From Eledone cirrhosa (lineage: Eukaryota), in contig OZ024745.1 in NCBI GenBank assembly GCA_964016885.1, forward strand, positions 92,752,001-92,816,000: DNA of 64,000 nt, given 5' to 3'. A program made the position numbers and the translations under genes. Below the pieces are notes generated by a model. It was not told the origin of the DNA. It made no database searches and was given only the letters and a program-made list of their open reading frames with translations. Shown one piece after another: positions 5,633 to 64,000 of the stretch (its first letter is position 1; the number at the start of each line of letters is the position of its first letter).

Positions 5633-6011
5633 AGTAAGAAACATGTAAAGAAACTACTGTTGTATCGAGAACGAGAAAACACACCTTCCTAACCTAAGAA
5701 AGATGTAAAGAAAAGTTGACTTGAATACAACGCAGTTTTTTTTTAGTAATAAATATATTTGTAACATCAGACATTTTGGTCAGAGTGGAGAGAAGGAATT
5801 AATCAAACCTGAGTACCTTATAAGCTACTGATATCATCAATCCATAAACTTTATAACATCTAGTCTTATATTATTTACTTTAAAGGTATATACACCAAAT
5901 GAGTTTGAACTTAATGTCTCTAGATCAACGAAACTACATAAAAAAGCAATCAGATTTACGAGTTATATACACATACATATACATATATGTATATATATGT
6001 GTGTATGTATG

Positions 6012-6053
<42 letters not shown>

Positions 6054-6060
6054 CATACAT

Positions 6061-6097
<37 letters not shown>

Positions 6098-6100
<3 letters not shown>

Positions 6101-6956
6101 GAAAGTACAGTAGCTAGAGTCAGAACTGGGTGGAAAAAGTTCAGAGAGCTTATACCACTATTAGCCGCTAAAGGGTTCTCCCTAAAAATGAAAGGCAGGC
6201 TGTACGATGCCTGCATACGAACAGCAATGTTGCATGGCAGTGAGACCTGGGCATTGTGTGCAGAGGATATACGCAGACTAGAGAGAAACGAAGCTTGCAT
6301 GCTCCGCTGGATGTGTAATAGTAATATACGTGAACGACAAAGCATAAACGAACTAAGGAAAAAATTAGAAATAAGAGGGATCAGATGTTGTTTACTAGAG
6401 AGAAGGCTACGTTGGTATGGTCACGTGATGCGCATGAAGGACGATAGCTGTATAACAAAGTGCAGGGCAATAAAGATAGACGGTAGCCACGGAATAGGCA
6501 GACCCAGAAAAACCTGGGACGAGCTGATAAACTCCGACCTCACACACTTACACCTCACCAAGACAATGTCACTGGACCGAGACCTTTGGCGGTACTCAGT
6601 AATAGAGAAGACCCGCCTTACCTAAATACAAAGTAAAACCTACCACAGTCAGTAGGCATCTCTAACAAAATACACCCCCGTCCCACCACCGCCACCCCAT
6701 CCACACCGCACCCTTCTATGTAAAGTTATGTTGGTGCCACACCATCCAGGCCGAAACAAATGAGATCGTGTAGGTGTCACGACAAAAAAACACACAGTCC
6801 ATGCTGTAATGTGGCCGTGTAGGCAACACGGTAAAAACCTGCCAGACAGTCCTATGCGAGCAAGACAATCACTCTTGCCTCAAGTGGGAAAACCCCCGTC
6901 CAAACCCATGCAAGCGTGGAACACGGACGTTAAACGTTGATGATGATGATGATGAT
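6098..6956 (+). mobile_element. 5'-truncated RTE-clade LINE (ORF C-terminus, 3'UTR, (GAT)n tail)
   Basis: [43 protein letters not shown]; nearly identical to 57148-57676; ends CGGACGTTAAAC(GAT)n; starts in a (TA)n tract. Confidence 0.92.
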
Positions 6957-7107: not shown

Positions 7108-8145
7108 ATGTCCATAGAATTGAAAAGAAATTTCATAATAGAGAAGCATGAAAAAAGGCCTGACTCCACCCGAGATATTTAAACTGGGGAAAACTCTTAA
7201 GATCAATAGAATGTTGATCAAAAGGACAATCGATCAATTTAAAGAAACTTCCTCGACCAAAGACAGACCTCGATCCGAATGCTCTCGCACCTCAAGAACA
7301 CCAAAACCCATTAAAAGTGTGAGGGGGGAAAATAAGGCGTAATCCAAGAAGGTCCATGAGAAAAATGGCAGAAGAAGCAGAAACATCGCCGAGAACTATG
7401 CGGAGGATATGTCGAGATGATCTGGGGATGTCACCCTATAAGTTCCAAAAGAGGCAGCTTCTTTCTGCAGCCACAATTGAAAAGAAACCCCTCCAGAAGT
7501 AAACTGTTGTTGAACCGTATCAAGGATGGCATGCTGCAAAACATCATCTTTACAGATGAGAAGTTATTCACTGTGCAGCAGTCTCACAATCATCAAAATG
7601 ATCGAGTACTTGCAAAAAGTCTCAAATCAATTTCTTCAAGTATAGGAAAAGTGTTCAGAACACAGAAACCAGCATCAGTGATGGTTTGGGCAGCCATTTC
7701 TGGAAGAGGGAAGTCCCCTCTGATCTTTGTGCCTCAAGGAGTTAAAATTAACAAAGAACTTTACATAAAAGATATTTTGGAAGGAGCACTGATGCCATGG
7801 TGCACATCTGTTTATGGCGATGACATTTGGACTCTCCAACAAGATGGAGCGACGAGCCACACTGCTCGCGTAACACAACAGTGTTGTAGAGACCATTGTC
7901 CTGCATGGATTAGTAAGGAAGAGTGGCCTCCCCCATCACCAGATCTCAACCCTCTCGATTTTTCTTTATGGTCAATTCTTGAGAGTGAAGTCTGCTCTAC
8001 TCCTAGCCAAAATATTGAAACTCTAAAATCAAAACTGAATAAAGTATGGGAGAAAGACCAATGGAAACTTTTTGTGCAGCCATCGAAGACTCTCCTAGAA
8101 GACTTTGAGCTGTAGTGAGAGCTAGAGGAAAGCATTTCGAATACA
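7108..8145 (+). pseudogene. Frameshifted DD37D transposase
   Basis: HTH-like N-terminus (EIFKLGKTLKINRMLIKRTI..DRPRS), IIFTDEKLF, QQDGA, WPPPSPDLNPLD; 37 residues between second and third Asp; split over several frames. Confidence 0.88.
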
Positions 8146-8195: not shown

Positions 8196-8412
8196 ATAGG
8201 CACAAAGCCAGCAATTTTGGGGGAGGGTAAAGTCGATTAAATCGACCCCAGTGCGTGACTGGTACTTTATTTTATCGACCCCATAAGGATGAAAAGCAAA
8301 GTTAACCTCAGCGGGATCTGAATTCAAATCATAAAAGGCCGTAACTCTATGCTGGAGAAAATGGTGTCTGACTCGCTACCGATACTGCCAATACTAATAT
8401 ATAATTGTTTCT
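8196..8412 (-). mobile_element. SINE nested in the maT element
   Basis: Near-identical to 4936-5153, including the junction into the next SINE tail. Confidence 0.85.
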
Positions 8413-9621
8413 GGTAGAACTAGAGATGAAATTCCAAACTTGGAAGCAGGGACTAGAAAGAAAGGGTCTCAAAGTCTACCTGACAAAGACTAAGGTCCTT
8501 GTAAGTAGACTAGAAAACAGAACCCAGATCCCCTCAGGGAAATGGCCTTGCTCAGTATGTAGGAAAGGTGTAGGTAGGAACTCCATTCTCTGCCCCAAAT
8601 GTAAACAATGGGTACATAAGAGATCTAGCGGGATCTCAGGAAGCTTAATTAAGAATGTAGGCTTCACGTGTAGCAGCCGTGCTAGGACAGCAAGCAGCAA
8701 ACAGCCACAAGAAACAAGTACCACCAATCTCTGGGAGGGCTCTGTAGAAATAGTAGATAGCTTCTGCTACCTAGGTGACCGAATTAGCAGCGGAGGTGGG
8801 TGTTCAGAAAGTACAATAACTAGGGTAAGAACGGGATGGAGGAAGTTCAGGGAACTACTGCCACTGCTAGCTGCAAAAGGCTTTTCCCTCAAAATGAAAG
8901 GCAGACTGTATTATGCGTGTATCCGAACAGCAATGTTACATGGTAGTGAGACCTGGGTGCTGTCTGTGGAAGACTTGCGTAGATTAGAAAGAAATGAAGC
9001 CTGCATGCTCTGATGGATGTGTAATAGTAATATACGCAAACGGCAAAGCATAAATGAATTGAGAGAGAGACTGAGCATAAGAGGAATCAAATGCTGTGTG
9101 CAGGAGAGGCGGTTGTGTTGGTATGGATATGTGATGCGTATGAAGGATGATAGCTGCATAAAAAGGTGCAGAGCACTAGAAGTCAATGGAAACCACGGAG
9201 TGGGGAGACCCAAGAAGACCTGGGATGAGGTGATAAAAGCCGACCTTACCCAATTACACCTCTCAAAGGCGACCTCTGGCGTCACGCAGTAATACAGAGT
9301 ACCCGACCTCTCATGGGTACAAGTTGAAGCATATAGACAATATGCCCTCACACCCTCCCACTGCAAAGAAATTGTGGAGGTGCCACAGCAAAAAAGCACC
9401 CAACCCACACTGTAAAGTGGACGTGTAGGCGCCACGGAAAAAAAGCACCCAGCACTCACTGTAAATGAGGTTGGTGTTAGGAGGGGCATCCAGCTGTAGA
9501 AACCAAGTCAAAATCAGTTCCTGTATGAGCAAGGCATGGTCAGCCGACCAGACACTGCCCACAACAGGACAACCCGTCTAACCCATGCTAGATGGAATAA
9601 CGGACGTAAAATGATGATGAT
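8413..9621 (+). mobile_element. 5'-truncated RTE LINE with degenerate PHD-type finger, nested in the maT element
   Basis: KTKVL..SGKWPCSVCRKGVGRNSILCPKCKQWVHKR..FCYLGD..LHGSETW; in-frame TGA at 9011; 3'UTR and (GAT)n tail. Confidence 0.9.
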
Positions 9622-20004: not shown

Positions 20005-20167
20005 GGTACCCCGGGTTCAATCGGGGGTAACCACAGTAAGTAAGGTACTCAATACATAATAGAGTATAGATATTTAATATAGAGATGGTTTCTACAGGGC
20101 TAGAACTGTTTCATTCAAAGGAAATCATCAGGAAAGCCCTTTCCTGACGATTTCCTTCGAACGAAAC
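20005..20167 (-). mobile_element. Penelope-like pLTR-derived fold-back element
   Basis: Inverted repeat 20107-20167 plus unique tail 20005-20100 homologous to 34760-34845; microsatellite flanks. Confidence 0.7.
20089..20135 (-). ncRNA. Type I hammerhead ribozyme
   Basis: Minus strand: tttc-CTGATGA-tttcctttgaat-GAAACAG-ttctagcc-CTGT-A-gaaa; stem I tttc/gaaa, stem III ACAG/CTGT, GUA triplet. Confidence 0.75.
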
Positions 20168-20206
20168 ATTAAATATATATGTGAGAGAGAGAGAGAGAGA
20201 GGGAGA

Positions 20207-32712: not shown

Positions 32713-33446
32713 TCTGTATATATATATAAAATTATGTTTGTGTGTGTGTATTACCTATAGGGGCCTACATCTTACGACCGATTAGTCATCAGGGAGTGTT
32801 TTCTATATATCAGCGTATCGTTTTTTTTATTCCGGGGTCATTCTGCAGATTAAAATCAATAGTGGGGGTCACCTTTTTTTAGGTATCGAAAAATAAGATT
32901 TTTGGCTCTAGCTCCCACATTTTGCCACCGATTTCGTTCAAATTTTAAAGCAAAATAGAATTTATCATTGCACATCCTGTAATGGCATTATATTTTGCAT
33001 TTGTTGTTCAGGGACGGCGTGGCAGCCACTTAAATATTTAAAAATACCACTTTCAGACTCAAATTTCCACTTTTTCAGCTCTAGCTCCCACATTAATCAA
33101 CCTACTTTGTTCAAATGTTACACTACGCTAGATCTGATTATTTCACGTCTTAAAGTGGGTTTATGTATTTGAAAATACCACCTTTTCGCTCAAATTTCCG
33201 CCTTTTCGGTTATAGCTCCCATATTTTTCAACCGATTTCGTTCAAAATCGAAACCCCCCCCCCCCCCCTGCATGCACCTTCGTCAGTCACCCGTGCTCCT
33301 CAGTGATAGAGGTCATCACCACTCTCCCCTCCATGGCCTGTGTGTGGCCATAGATGAGTCATCGAGAAGCAGTTGCTAAGATCAACACCTTTTCATCAAA
33401 GCAGATATTAATTTACCTACCCAGGCAACGCTGGGTACTGCTGCTA

Positions 33447-33650: not shown

Positions 33651-33981
33651 GCGAGTCTACATGTTAAAACATATCTGAGGAGCTTCCAGTTCCAGAGTCA
33701 GGTTCAATCATTAATAGCTCGTTCCTCGAGGTGCTCGAGGATGAGACATATGTAATTAAATATATAAATAATGCAACACTGATTCTTTGTTCCCTTATAT
33801 ATCAATACTATATATATATATATATATTATTTATTTATGTAGACCACTGAGCGTGTGCGCATAAACGCACCTGCACCGTGTTGTATTTGTGAGAGTATTG
33901 TATAAGCTCAATGTACGAGAACAGAGCCGTTATATGTAAAAGAAATCAAAGAACGCCTACATTCTCATACAATTTTTATTT

Positions 33982-34026
33982 GCTGACAATGTTTCATCCA
34001 TACCATTGGGCAGGAATCATCAGAGC
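33982..34026 (-). ncRNA. Minimal type I hammerhead ribozyme
   Basis: Reverse complement of 34361-34405. Confidence 0.8.
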
Positions 34027-34360
34027 TTTATAAACAAAAATACAGTGCTGAGTATAAGCTCTACTGAGCCTAGTCACATGAACATTAGAAATACTATAGA
34101 GGGCAACAAGAGGGAGATCGTGAATGGCAAGTATGGAGAGAGTGCATAGTGAGGTTGTTATTCAGCACTACAGCTAAATGCAATGGTACAGGCAGATTTT
34201 TTCACAAGATGCAGAAGCACGTGAGGGCACATAAAGGCAAAAAGTATAAACAATAGTAAAAACATAATAAAAAGTAAAAGGAAAATAATAATATAAAGAG
34301 ATTAAAAAAAAATTAAAAAAGAAAAAGTTTTAAAGCACACAAAAAACAGATGTTTATAAA

Positions 34361-34405
34361 GCTCTGATGATTCCTGCCCAATGGTATGGATGAAACATTG
34401 TCAGC
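34361..34405 (+). ncRNA. Minimal type I hammerhead ribozyme
   Basis: gct-CTGATGA-ttcctgcccaatggtatggat-GAAAC-att-GTC-agc, followed by aaataaa; stem I gct/agc; predicted cut after 34402. Confidence 0.8.
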
Positions 34406-34448
34406 AAATAAAAATTATATGAGTATGTAGGCGTTCTTTGATTTCTTT

Positions 34449-34487
<39 letters not shown>

Positions 34488-34630
34488 GTGCGTGTGTGTG
34501 TGTGTGTCATCATCATTTAACATACATTTTCCACGCTAGCATGGGTAGGACAGGTTGACCCTTTGGGAGCGAATCAGATCAGAGACCATGTTTCACTCAC
34601 TCAGACCTGATATATATATATATATATATA

Positions 34631-34845
34631 AGTTTATATAGAAAAGGCTTTTACATGACTAGTACAGTTTCATTCGTATGGAATCATCAGGAACGCTGTT
34701 TGATTTCATACAAATGAAACAGTACTAGTCCTGTAGAAGCCTTTTCTATATAAATAAACTTCTGTCTTCACTCTACACATGTATTGAGTACCTTATTTAC
34801 TGTGGCTACCCCCCCCCCCCCCCCCCCCGACTCAACTCAGGACCT
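34631..34845 (+). mobile_element. Fold-back element with degenerate hammerhead halves (same family as 20005-20167)
   Basis: Inverted repeat 34631-34761; minus strand CTGATGA..GAAAC..GTA; plus strand GAAACAG-tactagtc-CTGTA-gaa; tail gtattgagtacctta..tactgtggctacccc. Confidence 0.7.
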
Positions 34846-35863: not shown

Positions 35864-37351
35864 AGCTGAAAACAAGAAGGAAAACGTGAGAGAGAGAGGT
35901 GAATAGCAAAGGAGAGAGAGAAAATGAAAAAAAAAGTTATTTACAAAAATTAGTAAAAATGAGATATTCAGTAAAAACAAGAGTGACAGATACAACCAAC
36001 ATATATAAAAATGGAGCAACAGTATTTTAGAGTTTATAAGTGAAATGGAAGCTGATATGTAACAGGAATTCATTTGAAGTTAAATTTCATTAAATCATCA
36101 AATACTTTACTCATAGATTCAGAATTTATCAAAAGATTGTAAAATAGAATTTCTTTTATATTAAACAACATAACACTCAAATTTCAACTTGAATGTGCGC
36201 ACACACACAAACTCGCACAAATAACACGCACTCATACACATGCTTACACACACACAAACTCGCAGACACTCATACACAAACACGCACACATATACATGCA
36301 TAGACACTCATACACACACACACTCACACTCATGCAGGTAATTGATTATAGATTATGCTGTGTAAGTCACAACTTGGAGTTTCATGTTCAACTTTTTAGA
36401 TATCTGGGTCACCTGAAGATTGGGAAAATGAAACTGAGTAGCAACTCATTGACTTAGATCTGAATATGTCTGCTATTGAAACGTTAGTTCTTGTCTGATG
36501 ACCCTGTCATAAATAGGTGAAACCAGACTCACTATTTGGCCTTATTAAAGTGAATATTAAAACTCTACTCTGGTTCTACACACTCCAGCCGTAACACTGG
36601 AATACAATCCTAATGAAACGGACATTGTAACAGCATCGAGTGCTTTGAAAGGCATGCCTCCTATAACTGTTGTTACACAACTCTTAATCCAATATACACC
36701 CCACCCCACACGCCCTACTCCATCCTCCCACTTCCGTAAAGTGGTCGTGTAGGTGACACGACAAAAAGCACCCAGTCCACACTGTAAAGTGGTCATGTAG
36801 GAGACACGATAAAAAGGCTCCCAGTACACACTGTAAATGTGGTTGGTGTTAGGCAGGGCATCCAGCCGTAGAAAACCTGCCAGAAACAGTTCTGTACGAG
36901 CGAGATATGGTCACCCGACCAATCTTGCCTCAAGTGGGACAAACCCGTCCAACCCATGCTAGTGTTAAACAATGATGATGATATATATATATATCTATCA
37001 ATCATCATCATCATTTGTATGTCCGTTTTTCCATGTTTTCATGGGTTGGACAGCATATAAACACACACACATGCACACATAGCATCATCATTATTTTACA
37101 TCCGTTTTTCCATGCTGGTACAGGTCATCATGGTCCAAGACATTAGATAATTAGAGTTACTGCCTCCCTAGATGGGCCAAGCATCCACAACCCACTCATA
37201 CATGTTCCATTTTGGGCATAGTTTCTATGGTTAGATGCCCTTCCTATTACCAATTACTTTACAGAGCACACTGGGTGCGCTTATTGTGATACTAGTACCA
37301 AAGAAATTGTCATGTTCTTAACACAACTGAAGAGTCCTTTCAACCATTTGT

Positions 37352-50699: not shown

Positions 50700-50902
50700 A
50701 TAATAATAATAATAATTGTTTCTACTTTAGGCACAAGGCCAGCAAATTACTCAGTGCATTACTGGTACTTTATTTTATCGACCTCGTAAGGATGAAAGGC
50801 AAAGTAAATCTTGGCAGGATTTGAACTCAGAATGGCAAGGGCCGTAACTATGCGTCAAAGCATGGCGTCCGACTCTCTACAGATACTGCCAATCCACCGC
50901 CC
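50700..50902 (-). mobile_element. SINE copy
   Basis: Same family as 4535-5316; other copies at 24742-24950 and 31295-31482. Confidence 0.88.
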
Positions 50903-50919
50903 TTAATAATAATAATAAT

Positions 50920-51415
50920 CAAGGGTAATGATGTTACCAACTATAGACCTATCACATATCTGTCCGTAATGTGGAAACTGTTAACAAGCATTGTGTTTGA
51001 GGAAATCTACCATCACCTCCACATAAACAACTGGTTACCGGACGAACAGAAAGGATGCCAAAAGAAGTCCCGTGGTACAAAAGACCAGTTACTTATTGAT
51101 AAGATGGTAATGAGGAATTGCAAGAGGAGACACATTGGTCTTGCCATGGGATGGATAGATTACAAAAAGGCATTCGACATGGTACCTCATTCTTGGATAA
51201 CCAAAAGCCTAGAGATCTTCAAGGTGGCAGATAACATCAGACAGTTGTTGAGCAAAATTATGAAATCCTGGGAAACAGGCATGCTTCAAAAGGCATGCTT
51301 GCTGGGAACAGCAAGAACCCTCCGATACGTCCTGAATATCTGAGGCTGCAGGTAGCAGCTTGATACTCATTTCAACAAACTTTCCAGTTAAATAACATCA
51401 ATGACTGAGACTCAA
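50920..51415 (+). mobile_element. Internally deleted R4/Dong-like non-LTR retrotransposon in (TAA)n
   Basis: [43 protein letters not shown] fused to the C-terminal [17 protein letters not shown]; (TAA)n on both sides. Confidence 0.8.
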
Positions 51416-52083: not shown

Positions 52084-52887
52084 TCTGTATATATATAAAA
52101 TTAAGTATGTGTGTGTGTCTGTGTATTACCTATAGAGGCCTACATCTTACGACCGATTTTCATGAAACTTTACAGGCTCATAGATTAGTCATCGGGGAGT
52201 GTTTTCTATATATCAGCGTATCGTTTTTTTTTATTCCGGGATCATTCTGAAGATAAAAATCGATAGGGGGTCACCTTCTTTTAGGTCTCGAAAAATAAGT
52301 TTTTTGGCTCTAGCTCCCACATTTTGCCACCGATTTCGTTCAAACTTTAAAGCAAAATAGAATTTATCATTGCACATCCTGTAATGGCTTTATATTTTGC
52401 ATTTGTTGTTCAGGGACGGCGTGGCAGCCTCTTAAATATTAAAAAATATCACTTTTAGACTCAAATTTCCACTTTTTCGGCTCTAGCTCCCACATTAATC
52501 AACCTACTTTGTTCAAATTTTACACTACGCTAGATCTGATTATTTCACGTCTTAAAGTGGCTTTACATTTTGGATTTTTTGTTCAGGAACGGTGTGGCAG
52601 CCGCTTAAATATTTGAAAATACCACCTTTTCGCTCAAATTTCCACCTTTTCCGCTCTAGCTCCCACATTTTTCAACCGATTTCGTTCAAATTCGAAACTC
52701 CGTCCCCCAGCATGCCCCTTCGTCAGTCACCCGCATCCCTCAGTGATAGAGGTCATCACCACCCTCCCCCACATGGCCTGTGTGTGGCCATAGATGAGTC
52801 ATCGAAAAGCAGTCGCTAAGATCAACACCTTTTCATCAAAGCAGATATTATTTTACCTACCCAGGCAATGCTGGGTACTGCTGCTAG
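52084..52887 (+). mobile_element. Non-autonomous Helitron (second copy)
   Basis: TC...TACCCAG-gcaatg-CTGGGTA-ctgctg-CTAG; collinear with 32713-33447; three internal ctctagctcccacat subrepeats. Confidence 0.85.
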
Positions 52888-53753: not shown

Positions 53754-54049
53754 ACATGTCTCATTTTCTTAGAGAAATATGTTTACTTAAATTTGTTTGT
53801 TCAAATTTTTACTCTTCACCTTTGTCAGCTCACTTCCATAGCTTCTCAGCCTTTCACCTCACCTCTCTTGTTTAGCATTTTTTCTCCTCACCAAATCAGA
53901 TCCATCGACTTTAGTTGTATCCCTAATTTCCTCACTCCCAGATAAAGGGCCAGAATGACAAAACATTATATTGTACACTACTTACTCACAGCATATACAC
54001 TTCACCAATCTCCCCAACTTTTTAATAACTGATTTTTATTGATGTAGAC

Positions 54050-56176: not shown

Positions 56177-57740
56177 GGGGTCGTTCCAAAGGACTGGCAC
56201 AGCAGCATCATCGTTAACTGCTACAAGGGTAAAGGAGATGCCCTAGATAGCAGAAACTATAGAGGCATTAAATTAATTGACCAGGTCATGAAGGTCACAG
56301 AAAAAGTAATAGCAAAACTAATCAGAGAGTGAATTGATCTAGACGGAATGCAGTTCGGGTTTGTGTCAGGTAAAAGTACAACAGACGCTCTTTTCATTGT
56401 ACGACAACTACAGGAGAAGTACCTAGCTAAAAGTAAACCCCTATACTTAGCTTTTGTTGACTTGGAGAAAGCCTTTGACAGAGTACCCCATTTGATTATC
56501 TGGTGGGCCCTTAGAAAACTAGGTGTTGATGAATGGCTTGTGAGAGCTATACAAGCCATGTATAAAGAAACAGTCAGCAAGGTTAACAACGAATATAGTG
56601 AAGAGTTTAGCGTAAAAGTTGGTGTTCATCAGGGCTCCGTCCTTAGCCCCCTACTATTTATTATTGCCCTTCAGGCTATAACAGAGGAGTTCAAGACCGA
56701 CTGCCCATGGGAACTTCTATACGCAGATGATCTAACGCTCATAGCTGAATCAATGGCTGAACTAGAGAAGAAATTCCAAACATGGAAGCATGGCCTAGAA
56801 TCAAAAGGCCTTAAAATTAACCTGTCTAAGACTAAAGTTCTAGTATGTAGGAAGGAAAATAGGGCACTGGTCCCATCTGGGAAATGGCCATGCTCAATGT
56901 GTAGGAAAGGAGTAGGCAGAAACTCCATTTTATGTCCCAAATGCAAAGTATGGGTGCATAAAAGATGTAGTGGGATCACAGGTAAGCTAACTAAGAATAT
57001 AGATTTTATATGTCCCCGGTGCTCAGGTGCAATAAGTAGCAGCAAGTGCCCACAGAATACTAGCTCATTCCATTGCACAGATGGTTCTATAGAAATAGTG
57101 GACACCTTCCGTTACCTGGGTGACAAAATCAGCATTGGTGGAGGGTGCTCTGAAAGTACAGTAGCTAGAGTCATAACGGGATGGAAGAAGTTCAGAGAGC
57201 TTATACCACTATTAGCCGCTAAAGGGTTCTCTCTAAAAATGAAAGGCAGGCTGTATGATGCCTGCATACGAACAACAATGTTACATGGCAGTGAGAGTTG
57301 GGCATTGTGTACAGAGGACCTACGCAGACTGGAGAGGAACGAAGATTGCATGCTCCGTTGGATGTGTAATAGTAATATACGTGAACCGCAAAGCATAAAT
57401 GAACTAAGGGAGAAATTAGGAATAAGAGGAATCAGATGTTGTTTACTCAAGAGAAGACTACGTTGGTATGGTCACGTGATGCGCATGAAAGACGACAGCT
57501 GTATAAAAAAGTGCAGGGCGATTAAAATAGACGGTAGCCACAGAGTAGGCAGACCCAGAAAAACCTGGGACGACTTGATAAATTCCGACCTCACACACTT
57601 ACACCTCTCCAAGACAATGTCACTGGGCCGAGATCTTTGGCGCTACACAGTAATACAGAAGACCCGCCTTGCCTAAGTACAAAGCGAAACCTACAGTTAG
57701 TAGGCACCTCTAACAAAAATACACCTGATGATGATGATGA
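56177..57740 (+). mobile_element. 5'-truncated RTE-clade LINE
   Basis: VPKDW..YKGKGD..NYRGIKLID upstream of an in-frame TGA, then the 442-aa ORF; short 3'UTR and (GAT)n. Confidence 0.93.
56348..57676 (+). CDS. Non-LTR reverse transcriptase (partial) with embedded C4HC3 PHD-type finger
   Basis: QFGF, FVDLEKAFDRV, GVHQGSVLSPLLF, LLYADD, then CSMC..CPKC..HKRC..CPRC, FRYLG, LRWYGHVMR, GRPRKTW. Confidence 0.9.
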   Translation: MQFGFVSGKSTTDALFIVRQLQEKYLAKSKPLYLAFVDLEKAFDRVPHLIIWWALRKLGVDEWLVRAIQAMYKETVSKVNNEYSEEFSVKVGVHQGSVLSPLLFIIALQAITEEFKTDCPWELLYADDLTLIAESMAELEKKFQTWKHGLESKGLKINLSKTKVLVCRKENRALVPSGKWPCSMCRKGVGRNSILCPKCKVWVHKRCSGITGKLTKNIDFICPRCSGAISSSKCPQNTSSFHCTDGSIEIVDTFRYLGDKISIGGGCSESTVARVITGWKKFRELIPLLAAKGFSLKMKGRLYDACIRTTMLHGSESWALCTEDLRRLERNEDCMLRWMCNSNIREPQSINELREKLGIRGIRCCLLKRRLRWYGHVMRMKDDSCIKKCRAIKIDGSHRVGRPRKTWDDLINSDLTHLHLSKTMSLGRDLWRYTVIQKTRLA

Positions 57741-58310
57741 TATATATATATATACACTATATATATATGATGATGATGAAGATGACCAGATCCGAACACA
57801 AAAGAACCAAACTCCCACTGTCACTGTCTCTCACGCTCTCCCTATTACGAACAAATGGGGGCCTACACACTGGTTGCCCCGTGGCCCTGAACTCTGAGTG
57901 AACTATTATTGCCATGACTCCTGTCAGAAATTTTTTCTAAATTGTACTAAGACTATTTTCAATTTTTTTTTTTTAAATATTTTCTAGTTTCCCCAAACAA
58001 AAATTACCGTATTTCTAAACCACTTGTTTGGATGATTTAAGAAAGAAGGGAAAGATCTGAAATAAACATGAAGTAATAATACTCGGTAGACTGAGGCTTG
58101 AATATTTCACTGAAATGGCATTTAAAAAGATTTGAAGCTCAATTACCATAGTTATTCGTGTATAATACACACATTTTTAATGAAAAAACATGATCGTGTG
58201 ACTTCCACAATGTTGATGTTTACAGTATGTGCACTTTTATGGCCTACACAAGTAAAATTTAAAGGTCACTTTTGATTTTTCTTTTTTTTTTTTATTTGGT
58301 TGCAAGAACT

Positions 58311-60142
58311 TTACAATGTTTGCTATGAAATAACTTACAATGTTTGCTATGAAATAACTTACAATGTTTGCTATGAAATAACTTACAATGTTTGCTATGA
58401 AATAACTTACAATGTTTGCTATGAAATAACTTACAATGTTTGCTATGAAATAACTTACAATGTTTGCTATGAAATAACTTACAATGTTTGCTATGAAATA
58501 ACTTACAATGTTTGCTATGAAATAACTTACAATGTTTGCTATGAAATAACTTACAATGTTTGCTATGAAATAACTTACAATGTTTGCTATGAAATAACTT
58601 ACAATGTTTGCTATGAAATAACTTACAATGTTTGCTATGAAATAACTTACAATGTTTGCTATGAAATAACTTACAATGTTTGCTATGAAATAACTTACAA
58701 TGTTTGCTATGAAATAACTTACAATGTTTGCTATGAAATAACTTACAATGTTTGCTATGAAATAACTTACAATGTTTGCTATGAAATAACTTACAATGTT
58801 TGCTATGAAATAACTTACAATGTTTGCTATGAAATAACTTACAATGTTTGCTATGAAATAACTTACAATGTTTGCTATGAAATAACTTACAATGTTTGCT
58901 ATGAAATAACTTACAATGTTTGCTATGAAATAACTTACAATGTTTGCTATGAAATAACTTACAATGTTTGCTATGAAATAACTTACAATGTTTGCTATGA
59001 AATAACTTACAATGTTTGCTATGAAATAACTTACAATGTTTGCTATGAAATAACTTACAATGTTTGCTATGAAATAACTTACAATGTTTGCTATGAAATA
59101 ACTTACAATGTTTGCTATGAAATAACTTACAATGTTTGCTATGAAATAACTTACAATGTTTGCTATGAAATAACTTACAATGTTTGCTATGAAATAACTT
59201 ACAATGTTTGCTATGAAATAACTTACAATGTTTGCTATGAAATAACTTACAATGTTTGCTATGAAATAACTTACAATGTTTGCTATGAAATAACTTACAA
59301 TGTTTGCTATGAAATAACTTACAATGTTTGCTATGAAATAACTTACAATGTTTGCTATGAAATAACTTACAATGTTTGCTATGAAATAACTTACAATGTT
59401 TGCTATGAAATAACTTACAATGTTTGCTATGAAATAACTTACAATGTTTGCTATGAAATAACTTACAATGTTTGCTATGAAATAACTTACAATGTTTGCT
59501 ATGAAATAACTTACAATGTTTGCTATGAAATAACTTACAATGTTTGCTATGAAATAACTTACAATGTTTGCTATGAAATAACTTACAATGTTTGCTATGA
59601 AATAACTTACAATGTTTGCTATGAAATAACTTACAATGTTTGCTATGAAATAACTTACAATGTTTGCTATGAAATAACTTACAATGTTTGCTATGAAATA
59701 ACTTACAATGTTTGCTATGAAATAACTTACAATGTTTGCTATGAAATAACTTACAATGTTTGCTATGAAATAACTTACAATGTTTGCTATGAAATAACTT
59801 ACAATGTTTGCTATGAAATAACTTACAATGTTTGCTATGAAATAACTTACAATGTTTGCTATGAAATAACTTACAATGTTTGCTATGAAATAACTTACAA
59901 TGTTTGCTATGAAATAACTTACAATGTTTGCTATGAAATAACTTACAATGTTTGCTATGAAATAACTTACAATGTTTGCTATGAAATAACTTATAATGTT
60001 TGCTATGAAATAACTTATAATGTTTGCTATGAAATAACTTACAATGTTTGCTATGAAATAACTTACAATGTTTGCTATGAAATAACTTATAATGTTTGCT
60101 ATGAAATAACTTATAATGTTTGCTATGAAATAACTTATAATG
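58311..60142. repeat. 24-bp satellite (TTACAATGTTTGCTATGAAATAAC), about 76 units
   Basis: Essentially perfect array; C>T variant only in the last few units. Confidence 0.97.
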
Positions 60143-60277
60143 ATTTCTATATTAAATACATTGAATATAGAGCCTTTATTATAAATCTGATTCAATACTC
60201 CTTTTCACATTCATCATAATACTAAAGAAAAGCCAGCATGTATTATATATATATATATATATATATATTTTTTTTAA

Positions 60278-60899
60278 ATGCAGGTGGGTGCTATAGAAGT
60301 GGTTGATAGCCTCCGGTGCCAAGGTGATCAGATTATTATGGGAGGGAGGGGGTCCGAGGCCATAGTATCTAGAATAAGGACAGTTGGAAGAAGTTTAGGG
60401 AGCTGCTTCCTCTGCTGATGAAGGGTTTCTCCCTGCGTACGAAAGGCCGGTTAGATGATGCTTGTGTGAGGTGTGCGATGCTACATGGTAGTGAGACATG
60501 GGCAGCAACTGCAGAGGATATGCGACGACTGGAGAGAAATGAGGCAAGCATGCTCCGTTGGATGTGTAATGTCAATGTGTGTGATAGGCTGAGCATGGAT
60601 GTGTTGAGAGAGAAACTGTGTCTGAGAGGGATAAATTGTTGTGTGTGGGAGAGGAGACTGCGATTGTATGGACATGTGATGTACAGAAGGAGTGCCAAGA
60701 AATGCCAGTTGAAGGAAGACGTAGTAGAGGAAGACCACGAAAAACATGGGCGGAGGTGGTGAGAGCGGACCTCAGATCACTGAAGCTCACGGTGGAGATG
60801 ACAAAGGACCGTGACAAGTGGAGAGATGCTGTGCTGAATAGGACCCGTCCCACTCTTGCAAGCAGGGAAAAACGGACGTAAAATGATGATGATGATGAT
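60278..60899 (+). mobile_element. Decayed RTE LINE 3' fragment (diverged subfamily)
   Basis: KGFSLRTKGRL..LHGSETW..RRLRLYGHV..RGRPRKTW; ends aaaacggacgtaaaat(gat)n. Confidence 0.85.
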
Positions 60900-61840: not shown

Positions 61841-62342
61841 TTGTAACTCTTGATGCAGTTGTAGGATGTTAAACCTGGCGGAAACCATCCCTCTCAAGAA
61901 CTAGACACAGCCAATTTCTTCCAGAGAAGAGTAGGAGAGAGGAAGTTAATACTTTTATCGACCTTGAAAGGGTGAAAGGCAAAGTTCACTTTGTTGGGAA
62001 TTGAATAATATAATATATATATAATATATATAATATATATATATTATAATATATATATTATATATATATAAATATATATATATATTATATATATATTATA
62101 TATATTATATATATATTATATATATTATAATATATATATATTATATATATATTATATATATTATAATATATATATATATATATTATAATATATATATATT
62201 ATATATATATTATATATATTATAATATATATATATATATATTATATATATTATAATATATATATATATATTATAATATATATATATATATATATATATTA
62301 AAATAGAAAGATTTGAATGGATACAGTTTAGTTGAAAGGAAT

Positions 62343-62462
62343 TTATTGACACGTGTTTCTATAACAGTTACATAACCTAAAACAGCTGATATCTACAAAC
62401 TTTTAGTTATGCAGACATTCAATATTTCAATGTTATTATTTACTGTCATTTCATCAGAATAA
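62343..62462 (-). ncRNA. Type I hammerhead ribozyme with extended stem II
   Basis: Reverse complement of 63494-63613. Confidence 0.72.
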
Positions 62463-62997
62463 TATTACTGAGGACCTATTTAGTTTTTATAGAGAATATT
62501 AGGAGGGAGGGGTGAAGTTGTTAGAAGAATAGTTGAAGGAGTGGTTTTTCGATAGCAGTGAGTAATTAGATTCCCATCTGTTGTTTTGACATTTTTTATA
62601 GAATATATTATTGGTTATTTTTCTAAATCTATAGAAGGATTAGAGATAGTAAAGATATGCGTGGTTGGTTTTGTGTTTGCACTTAATTAACATTCAGACT
62701 TAAATTTTTCTTTCAAGTGTACGCATACCTTCACCCACGCATTCACACACAAATATATTTGCACACCTCTACAAAATACATATACTCACAATTCACATAT
62801 TCATACTTACATATATATACACATGCATACACATATATATACACACATGTATTCATGTACATACTTACGCGCTCATGTGTATACATTTTCATACTCAACT
62901 TATCTTTATATACACACGTATAGACACACACATATATACATACTTACTCTAGTCCATGTGTACACACATACACATCTATATACACATATATACATAC

Positions 62998-63038
<41 letters not shown>

Positions 63039-63493
63039 TATACATATATATATACATATATATATATAAGCACTTTAATACATGAATACACTTACATCTA
63101 ACTATACACATCAAACATATATATATATTTACTTATTTATATACATTTTCACATATATATACATACTTATGGACGTTTTTAGACACATTCATTATCGCAT
63201 ATTTGCACCTATTCTCATCGGCATATCTTTCCATTATTAGTGTGGTAATTTAAGGTTATTAATATATGTTGAGAAGAGATTGTTTTTATATTTTTCTAAC
63301 TAGATTAAGGTTTATATAGTTGGGGGATGTCCCTCTTTTATGTAATATTCGGCTTGTAGATGGGAATCTAATTACTCACTGCCACCAAGAATTCTCACTG
63401 CTATCAAAAAACCACTCCTTCAACTATTCTTCTAACAACTTCACCCCTCCCTCCTAATATTCTCTATAAAAACTAAATAGGTCCTCAGTAATA

Positions 63494-63613
63494 TTATTCT
63501 GATGAAATGACAGTAAATAATAACATTGAAATATTGAATGTCTGCATAACTAAAAGTTTGTAGATAGCAGCTGTTTTAGGTTATGTAACTGTTATAGAAA
63601 CACGTGTCAATAA
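63494..63613 (+). ncRNA. Type I hammerhead ribozyme with 91-nt stem II domain
   Basis: ttatt-CTGATGA-a-atgacagt...actgttat-a-GAAAC-acgt-GTC-aataa(a); stem I ttatt/aataa; palindromic stem III ACACGTGT. Confidence 0.72.
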
Positions 63614-64000
63614 ATTCCTTTCAACTAAACTGTATCCATTCAAATCTTTCTATTTTTCTCCGGATTACTTTTGGAACTACAACTGGAACCGTCGAGCAAA
63701 CTCTACGTGAGCTGATAATCTACTGCGTGTAATATTTATATTACAACACAACGGAAAATACTGTATATATATTAAAATATATATATATATATATATATAT
63801 TAAAATATATATATATATATATATTAAAATATATATATATATATATATATATTAAAATATATATATATATATATATTAAAATATATATATATATATATTA
63901 TAATATATATATATTATATATATTATAATATATATATATTATATATATTAAAATATATATATTATAATATATATATATTATATATATTAAAATATATATA

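Follow-up and report, generated by a model that had tools for sequence, protein, structure and literature searches.

The element at positions 33830-34456 of the window (the whole 64,000-nt stretch of Eledone cirrhosa DNA analysed here, from contig OZ024745.1 of assembly GCA_964016885.1) is very probably the product of a single retrotransposition by an endonuclease-bearing Penelope-like element (PLE), or a non-coding derivative moved by one, and is most like the (TA)n-targeting elements of the Hydra clade. It carries a hammerhead ribozyme (HHR) on each strand, an arrangement that the initial annotation had taken for a special bidirectional cassette. That interpretation is not supported: the layout is that of published PLE insertion products, the ribozymes lie on opposite strands, and the core is buried in the predicted read-through RNA.

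The element is built on two inverted arms, 33931-34036 and 34351-34456, each of 106 nt, complementary at 104 of 106 positions and separated by 314 nt; the only two mismatches, at 34417 and 34424, are both beyond the ribozyme. Read on the opposite strand, the 45-nt core at 34361-34405 recurs without a mismatch at 33982-34026, which places C17 of the hammerhead pair at 34402 (+) and 33985 (-); the cores are ~340 bp apart. A 101-nt extension, 33830-33930, continues the left arm only, while the right arm meets (TA)n directly, and TACATA is found at both ends of the element, immediately ahead of (TA)n. The window contains 57 (TA)n arrays, and positions no more than 6 nt from a (TA)6 or longer array make up only 2.7% of it; the element has (TA)n at both its ends. 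The geometry first described for this locus—106-bp inverted arms about a 314-bp spacer, motifs that are exact reverse complements, a tail on one side only and (TA)n on both—was borne out in every respect by the sequence check. The features, by position and strand, are these:

33809-33827, no strand: (TA)n array at the tailed 3' end, the presumed insertion target; the element boundary is uncertain by a few bases, 33828-33830.
33830-33930, minus: 101-nt tail, present in the long copy only, ending in TACATA-(AAT-rich) and then (TA)n; assigned by its hairpin and by analogy with PLE tails.
33912-33971, minus: predicted hairpin, a 12-bp helix of arm with tail (33971-33960 with 33923-33912); the short-copy end, 33931, falls at the 3' shoulder of the loop.
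33931-34036, minus: left arm, the pLTR-like segment of the long (sense) copy, from comparison of the arms.
33972-34041, minus: predicted type I hammerhead belonging to the long copy, with its core at 34026-33982 and its cut site after 33985.
34037-34350, minus: non-coding body of 314 nt, upstream of the ribozyme; presumably either resembles a 3' UTR or is internal sequence of a non-autonomous element, with a 5' truncation at 34350.
34351-34456, plus: right arm, the inverted shorter copy (5'-truncated, tail-less), its final bases overlapping (TA)n.
34361-34405, plus: predicted type I hammerhead of the short copy, cut site after C34402.
34452-34479, no strand: (TA)n array at the tail-less 3' end, from the sequence.

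Read along its sense strand, which is the minus strand, the element runs body, hammerhead, hairpin, tail, the body being U-rich (63% T over its first 130 nt). It amounts to two outward-facing copies of one 3' end, both joined to (TA)n: one of ~521 nt, which starts at the end of the tail, and one of 106 nt, which begins 101 nt further in. Both copies span an uncut ribozyme site. Near-perfect inverted repeats beside microsatellites assemble poorly, and a fold-back arising in library preparation or assembly could be invoked for this structure; we give that explanation almost no credence, given the two differences between the arms, the unduplicated body, the (TA)n at both ends and a design matching that of published PLE insertions.

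Both motifs display the type I features: CUGANGA and GAAA boxes, an NUH cut site (GUC), and three helices closed at stem I. In the short copy, stem I pairs 34361-63 with 34403-05, the core lies at 34364-70, stem II (34372-90) is flanked by U 34371 and U 34391, GAAA is at 34392-95, and stem III pairs 34395-96 with 34400-01 about a 3-nt loop, ATT (AUU in RNA). Predicted stem lengths are 3 bp for stem I (up to 13), 7 bp with a bulge for stem II and 2 bp for stem III. Outside the 45-nt core the two ribozymes are not equivalent: stem I of the tailed copy can be extended from 3 bp, across a 5-nt bulge, by a further 10 bp (34041-34032 with 33981-33972), whereas the short copy keeps just 5 nt of the distal stem I strand, half of it having been lost. 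At the base of stem II the G10.1-C11.1 pair is absent, its place being taken by U opposite U, followed by U-A. Cervera and de la Pena (PMC4209133) define the min-HHR by the lack of loop III and a conserved G10.1-C11.1; with its 3-nt loop III and no such pair the element is therefore not a strict min-HHR in their sense. Of the earlier description as a PLE minimal hammerhead with a 2-bp stem III, the type I class, the PLE type and the 2 bp stand, but "minimal" was loosely used. Stem III comes to +3.7 kcal/mol when folded as a hairpin and to -2.3 kcal/mol when paired with a second copy of itself, energies in keeping with cleavage of the dimer type. The literature searched yielded no cleavage assay of a stem II with U opposite U, a form that may be covered, beyond that literature, by the work of Lunse et al. 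on PLE hammerhead variants.

To estimate how often such a motif arises by chance we used a type I descriptor that asks for 3 core-adjacent base pairs in each of stems I and II and for 2 bp in stem III, and that allows stem II to be flanked by a single extra base on either side. It has three matches in the window, two in this element and one at 20131, as against a match in 1 of 300 block-shuffled windows and in none of 20,000 arm shuffles; these chance figures are somewhat flattering, since the descriptor was composed after the motif had been seen. A looser descriptor gave in addition an implausible match at 33303. The hammerhead motif is far above chance. The motif and covariance-model search that had been proposed for this locus thus had a divided outcome, the descriptor finding both hammerheads and Rfam giving no hammerhead at gathering score across the window. 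Even at E<=10 Rfam gave none over 33700-34600 (901 nt), and a search with 91 nt returned RAGATH-1-hammerhead only, with the core in register, at a non-significant 12.6 bits and E 5.8 (gathering 56.3).

Two other sequences in the window resemble hammerheads in part. One, at 36495-36530 (+), is an isolated hammerhead-like core whose stem II has 5 bp but whose other two stems, I and III, are poor; it may be the remains of a pLTR. The other is a dispersed repeat, at 32899-33303 and ~52250-52730, with internal direct repeats of 131-173 bp; it has CTGACGA and GAAA boxes without convincing hammerhead stems.

Folding predictions bear on what the two ribozymes could do at this locus. For both, the lowest-energy monomer fold is predicted to be inactive, with the core paired to the cut-site strand, and to be favoured by ~7 kcal/mol. 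An extended fold around the ribozyme does not exceed shuffled sequence in stability (z -0.58; -1.68 for the whole sense strand), and the long stem that we had built around the ribozyme was rejected as no better than shuffles. The arm-tail hairpin is predicted to be more stable than most shuffles (z -2.47, 2 of 200 equally stable), and it is at the shoulder of its loop that the short copy terminates. Both arm differences, 34417 and 34424, correspond to positions in the 5' strand of this hairpin, where the tailed copy keeps the pairing bases; swapping the short-arm bases into the hairpin weakens the fold from -19.5 to -11.3 kcal/mol. From this we infer that the short arm bears both derived changes.

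A transcript reading through the element in either direction is predicted to form a duplex of ~-235 kcal/mol in which 39 of 39 core positions are paired to the opposite arm. The hammerheads being on different strands, each transcript carries one ribozyme and one antisense copy, and no dimerisation within a transcript follows; an intramolecular ribozyme dimer is ruled out on the same ground. On these predictions the locus more likely yields double-stranded RNA than cleavage products. Since the ribozymes are never on the same strand and a read-through RNA would be a duplex, the pair of hammerheads is best read as an insertion scar and not as a purpose-built two-way device.

The tail hairpin also speaks to the relation between arm and tail. 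Were the element a MITE or other DNA transposon that had inserted at TA, its terminal inverted repeats would be the arms of 106 bp, the tail would be an unrelated flank, and the hammerhead a relic or a chance occurrence. Both arms do finish in TATA, (TA)n arrays are common enough (57 in 64 kb) that one 100 nt away is not rare, and the window includes a DDE transposase fragment: at 7323-8112 (+) there is a broken Tc1/mariner-like transposase with an HTH, under the Pfam cut-offs. Yet the hammerhead is complete and above chance, the 101 nt beyond the left arm are predicted to pair with arm sequence, and the arm-plus-tail design recurs in unrelated families within the window. We regard such an origin as highly improbable. 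No target-site duplication is readable within (TA)n.

The element has no appreciable coding capacity. Its longest stop-free frame is 69 aa and its longest Met-start frame 40 aa, and none of the four frames tested over it matched Pfam, in keeping with the spacer having been annotated as non-coding. Nor was a GIY-YIG domain detected among 209 window frames compared with Pfam, these being the 208 stop-free frames of at least 50 aa that passed a complexity filter, plus one of 47 aa, with shorter and low-complexity frames excluded. An ORF beginning inside the ribozyme, as in PAc, was sought and rejected, all three sense frames stopping within ~20 codons. The lack of an ORF for the telomerase-like RT and GIY-YIG endonuclease of EN+ PLEs is as expected of a 5'-truncated copy. 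RVT_1 has two matches in the window, both >16 kb from the element, which we take to be LINE-type; comparison of two RT fragments was uninformative. Fragments of non-LTR-type RT lie at 56333-57673 (RVT_1 with a PHD finger), 50825-51340 (RVT_1), 8405-9010 (a weak PHD match), 5942-6622 and 60373-60759, and are presumably RTE-like and R4-like. A near-perfect tandem array of a 24-bp unit, open in several frames, extends for ~1.9 kb at ~58300-60150.

Searches for further copies gave little. There is no second copy of the element in the window, the best match being of 17 nt at 54035. The 24-nt core word has no exact match in the prokaryotic genome contigs, and the phage collection has no match to the element; as these collections are prokaryotic and phage, their silence argues only against a prokaryotic origin. 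No homology above that of shuffles was found to the motifs at 62-63 kb, 20 kb, 34.6 kb or 36.5 kb. The 62-63 kb element in particular, to which this one had been declared unrelated, gives no blastn match, and the local alignment score between them is reached by 98 of 300 shuffles, so the declaration holds.

That element, at 62300-62567 and 63390-63765, has 268-nt arms that are 98.9% identical, a tail of ~107 nt on the right arm and TA-rich flanks, with a further 25-nt inverted piece at 62555-62579 / 63358-63382. It possesses both core boxes and stems II and III, with stem I absent beside the core, and in this recalls the "HHR_core" cases described for Naiads. The initial annotation counted it as the first hammerhead cassette; the core boxes are indeed there, but at none of five candidate cut sites do more than two contiguous stem I pairs form.

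The arrangement seen at 33830-34456 is a familiar one among PLEs. Craig et al. (2021, PMC8557442) describe PLE insertions as truncated at the 5' end, where an inverted copy, itself 5'-truncated, is often found, and as carrying a tail of 30-40 bp on one of their ends; the element likewise has its HHR in a pLTR-like segment near the 3' end and an inverted 5'-truncated copy at the 5' end, as in EN+ PLE insertions, while its one-sided extension, seen in a single copy, is 101 nt as against the published 30-40 nt. Arkhipova et al. (2013, PMC3846280) describe an inverted shorter pLTR, an optional tail, pLTR palindromes at the 5' end and overlapping inverted pLTRs. The dual min-HHRs of Cervera and de la Pena (2014, PMC4209133), reported for Schistosoma Cercyon and a Cotesia bracovirus PLE, are like those of the element in lying on opposite strands ~100-700 bp apart, with a U-rich 5' and AU-rich 3' context and a palindromic stem III region, and the legend of supplementary item S4A in the same work shows a PLE, truncated at the 5' end, whose opposite strand bears a second HHR.

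A mechanistic parallel is Poseidon PAc of Anolis. According to Frangieh et al. (2024, PMC11167929), the Poseidon PLE protein nicks and extends both strands, two internal start sites on the RNA delimit the tail, the template RNA is uncleaved, and the HHR cuts only with protein. The element has the same two 3' end points bounding a tail, the inner one in a predicted stem-loop, and the same AT-rich target, and its copies, like PAc inserted from uncleaved RNA, span the intact site. PAc, as there described, begins its ORF within the HHR and has a tail of 30-40 nt. The element has no ORF beginning at its HHR, carries a tail of 101 nt and, unlike PAc, shows TA microhomology between its inner end and the target.

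From these parallels we propose the following origin. After the RT-endonuclease had nicked a (TA)n array on either strand, cDNA would have been primed twice on uncleaved element RNA, once at each internal start site; both sites are marked by TACATA, and the inner one could pair with a TA primer. Both cDNAs would have ended early and been joined 5' to 5'. Their source may have been two RNAs or one RNA read twice, which would leave the same product. The 5' end of the body and the sequence directly upstream of the long arm are alike at 11 of 12 nt, in a T-rich context, a likeness that may have helped to form the junction. Under a two-cDNA insertion mechanism the second hammerhead is a passenger of the inversion. 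In the parent, the ribozyme most likely acts on tandem transcripts, cleaving them as a dimer or with the aid of protein; this copy, which lacks an ORF, is probably inert.

Which PLE clade supplied the parent is less clear. According to Craig et al. (PMC8557442), Hydra-clade PLEs carry HHRs and target (TA)n, and the element shares with them the target, an HHR near the 3' end and a short palindromic stem III. Penelope-13_HM is listed in the supplement to that paper with an inverted truncated copy and one and the same HHR on either strand, ~100 nt in from both of its ends. This family and the others of Hydra magnipapillata are the ones that the element resembles most, among other things in an inverted 5'-truncated copy that puts an HHR on each strand. 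The U-U form of the stem II base is included among the "canonical HHR motifs" of Hydra PLEs, and by our count by eye of the supplementary table it occurs in 14 of 25 Hydra-clade families; the element has it, though to take unpaired bases flanking stem II on either side as a mark of the clade is our generalisation from that table and not a published criterion. Among the 56 motifs of Fig. S3 of Cervera, in a text rendering with the GAAA column detached, U-U appears once, in a Hydra magnipapillata row that also has AUU as loop III.

Distances from the HHR to the end of the element are 116 and 217. In the Hydra consensi (n=24) they are 87-130 in 12 cases, 152-210 in 11 and 425 in one, Penelope-18_HMa being omitted because its listed HHR is that of the 5' copy. 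The element's values are in or just past the two Hydra groups, and this hints that tails of ~100 nt are usual in the clade, bearing in mind that consensus ends reflect curators' choices. Several features differ. The element lacks an ORF, and with it the RWK and DKT motifs, the endonuclease without CCHH and the RT by which the Hydra clade is recognised; its stem I is 3 bp plus bulge plus distal helix, its stem II is of 7 bp and bulged, and its core is preceded by 327 nt or more of non-coding sequence, compared with ~50-220 nt between stop codon and HHR in six of the consensi as read by eye. The single cephalopod consensus of the Hydra clade, in the form given in the supplement, is without the U-U form and bears no resemblance to the element by eye. 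Exact matching of short words to the supplement text, in which line breaks can hide a match, found neither of two from the element, and none of six counting those from the 62-63 kb element. Insertion into (TA)n is also seen in Naiad and Neptune and so is not diagnostic of the Hydra clade; canonical HHRs are absent from the Naiad clade, whereas the three-helix HHR is complete in the element. Overall we put the chances of Hydra-clade parentage at about even.

A third hammerhead family is present nearby, in copies at 34628-34813 (170 bp downstream of the element) and 20023-20171 that are ~74% identical. Its hammerheads are head to head, 11-12 nt apart, around a short palindrome, with the same inversion centre in both copies; there is a tail on one arm, a U-U stem II base like that of the element, and a longer stem III. 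The descriptor match at 20131 (-) belongs to it; Rfam over 20060-20178 gave no hammerhead among 30 matches. The plus-strand core at 34.6 kb has a deletion of 5-6 nt, and the short arm at 20 kb ends just past GAAAC.

This family matters for one further interpretation, in which the two-armed unit would itself be mobile as a fixed non-autonomous PLE parasite, an "inverted retrozyme" copied whole by the enzyme of a PLE and retaining a ribozyme on either strand. Its sharing of one head-to-head inversion centre in two of two diverged copies is the best hint of fixed units that we have. The non-coding body of the element, moreover, exceeds the Hydra 3' UTRs examined, and a retrozyme preprint (10.64898/2026.07.22.740005) reports animal retrozymes to be non-autonomous PLE derivatives. 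The element resembles such non-LTR retrozymes in being non-coding, in its type I HHR with a short stem III and in presumed PLE mobilisation. The known retrozymes of that text are, however, direct tandems, which the element is not, and its pair of HHRs cannot free a monomer for circularisation. Only a single copy is present in the window, the unequal arms and one-sided tail suit an event that happens at each insertion, and the predicted read-through duplex would hide the ribozyme. Palindromic 5' pLTRs and overlapping inverted pLTRs were, besides, already described (PMC3846280), and a shared inversion centre can therefore recur mechanically. We think it unlikely that the unit is fixed, and equally unlikely that (TA)n-targeting PLEs have fixed parasites in this genome, non-coding and MITE-shaped, that move as the two-armed, two-ribozyme unit and whose hammerheads are both under selection. 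Were it so, the 101-nt tail and twin TACATA would mark a two-site, microhomology-assisted priming signal, different from the 30-40-nt, homology-free priming measured for Poseidon. Nothing on this family or on fixed inverted retrozymes was found in the literature covered, to which subscription papers and Repbase did not belong; the supplements of the retrozyme preprint could hold relatives.

A single PLE retrotransposition thus remains the preferred origin, and the element probably represents an unannotated family. The locus is then a clean, young example of a known PLE insertion scar, its arms being 98% identical. Its mechanistic value is modest: the formation of inverted ends by PLEs and their targeting of microsatellites is a named open question, for which this copy gives exact predictions, namely a pair of TACATA start sites separated by 101 nt, of which the inner lies within a hairpin, and uncleaved templates. 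Three things deserve a genome-wide look: the length of the tail, the occurrence of TACATA at both ends, and the family represented at 20 kb and 34.6 kb.
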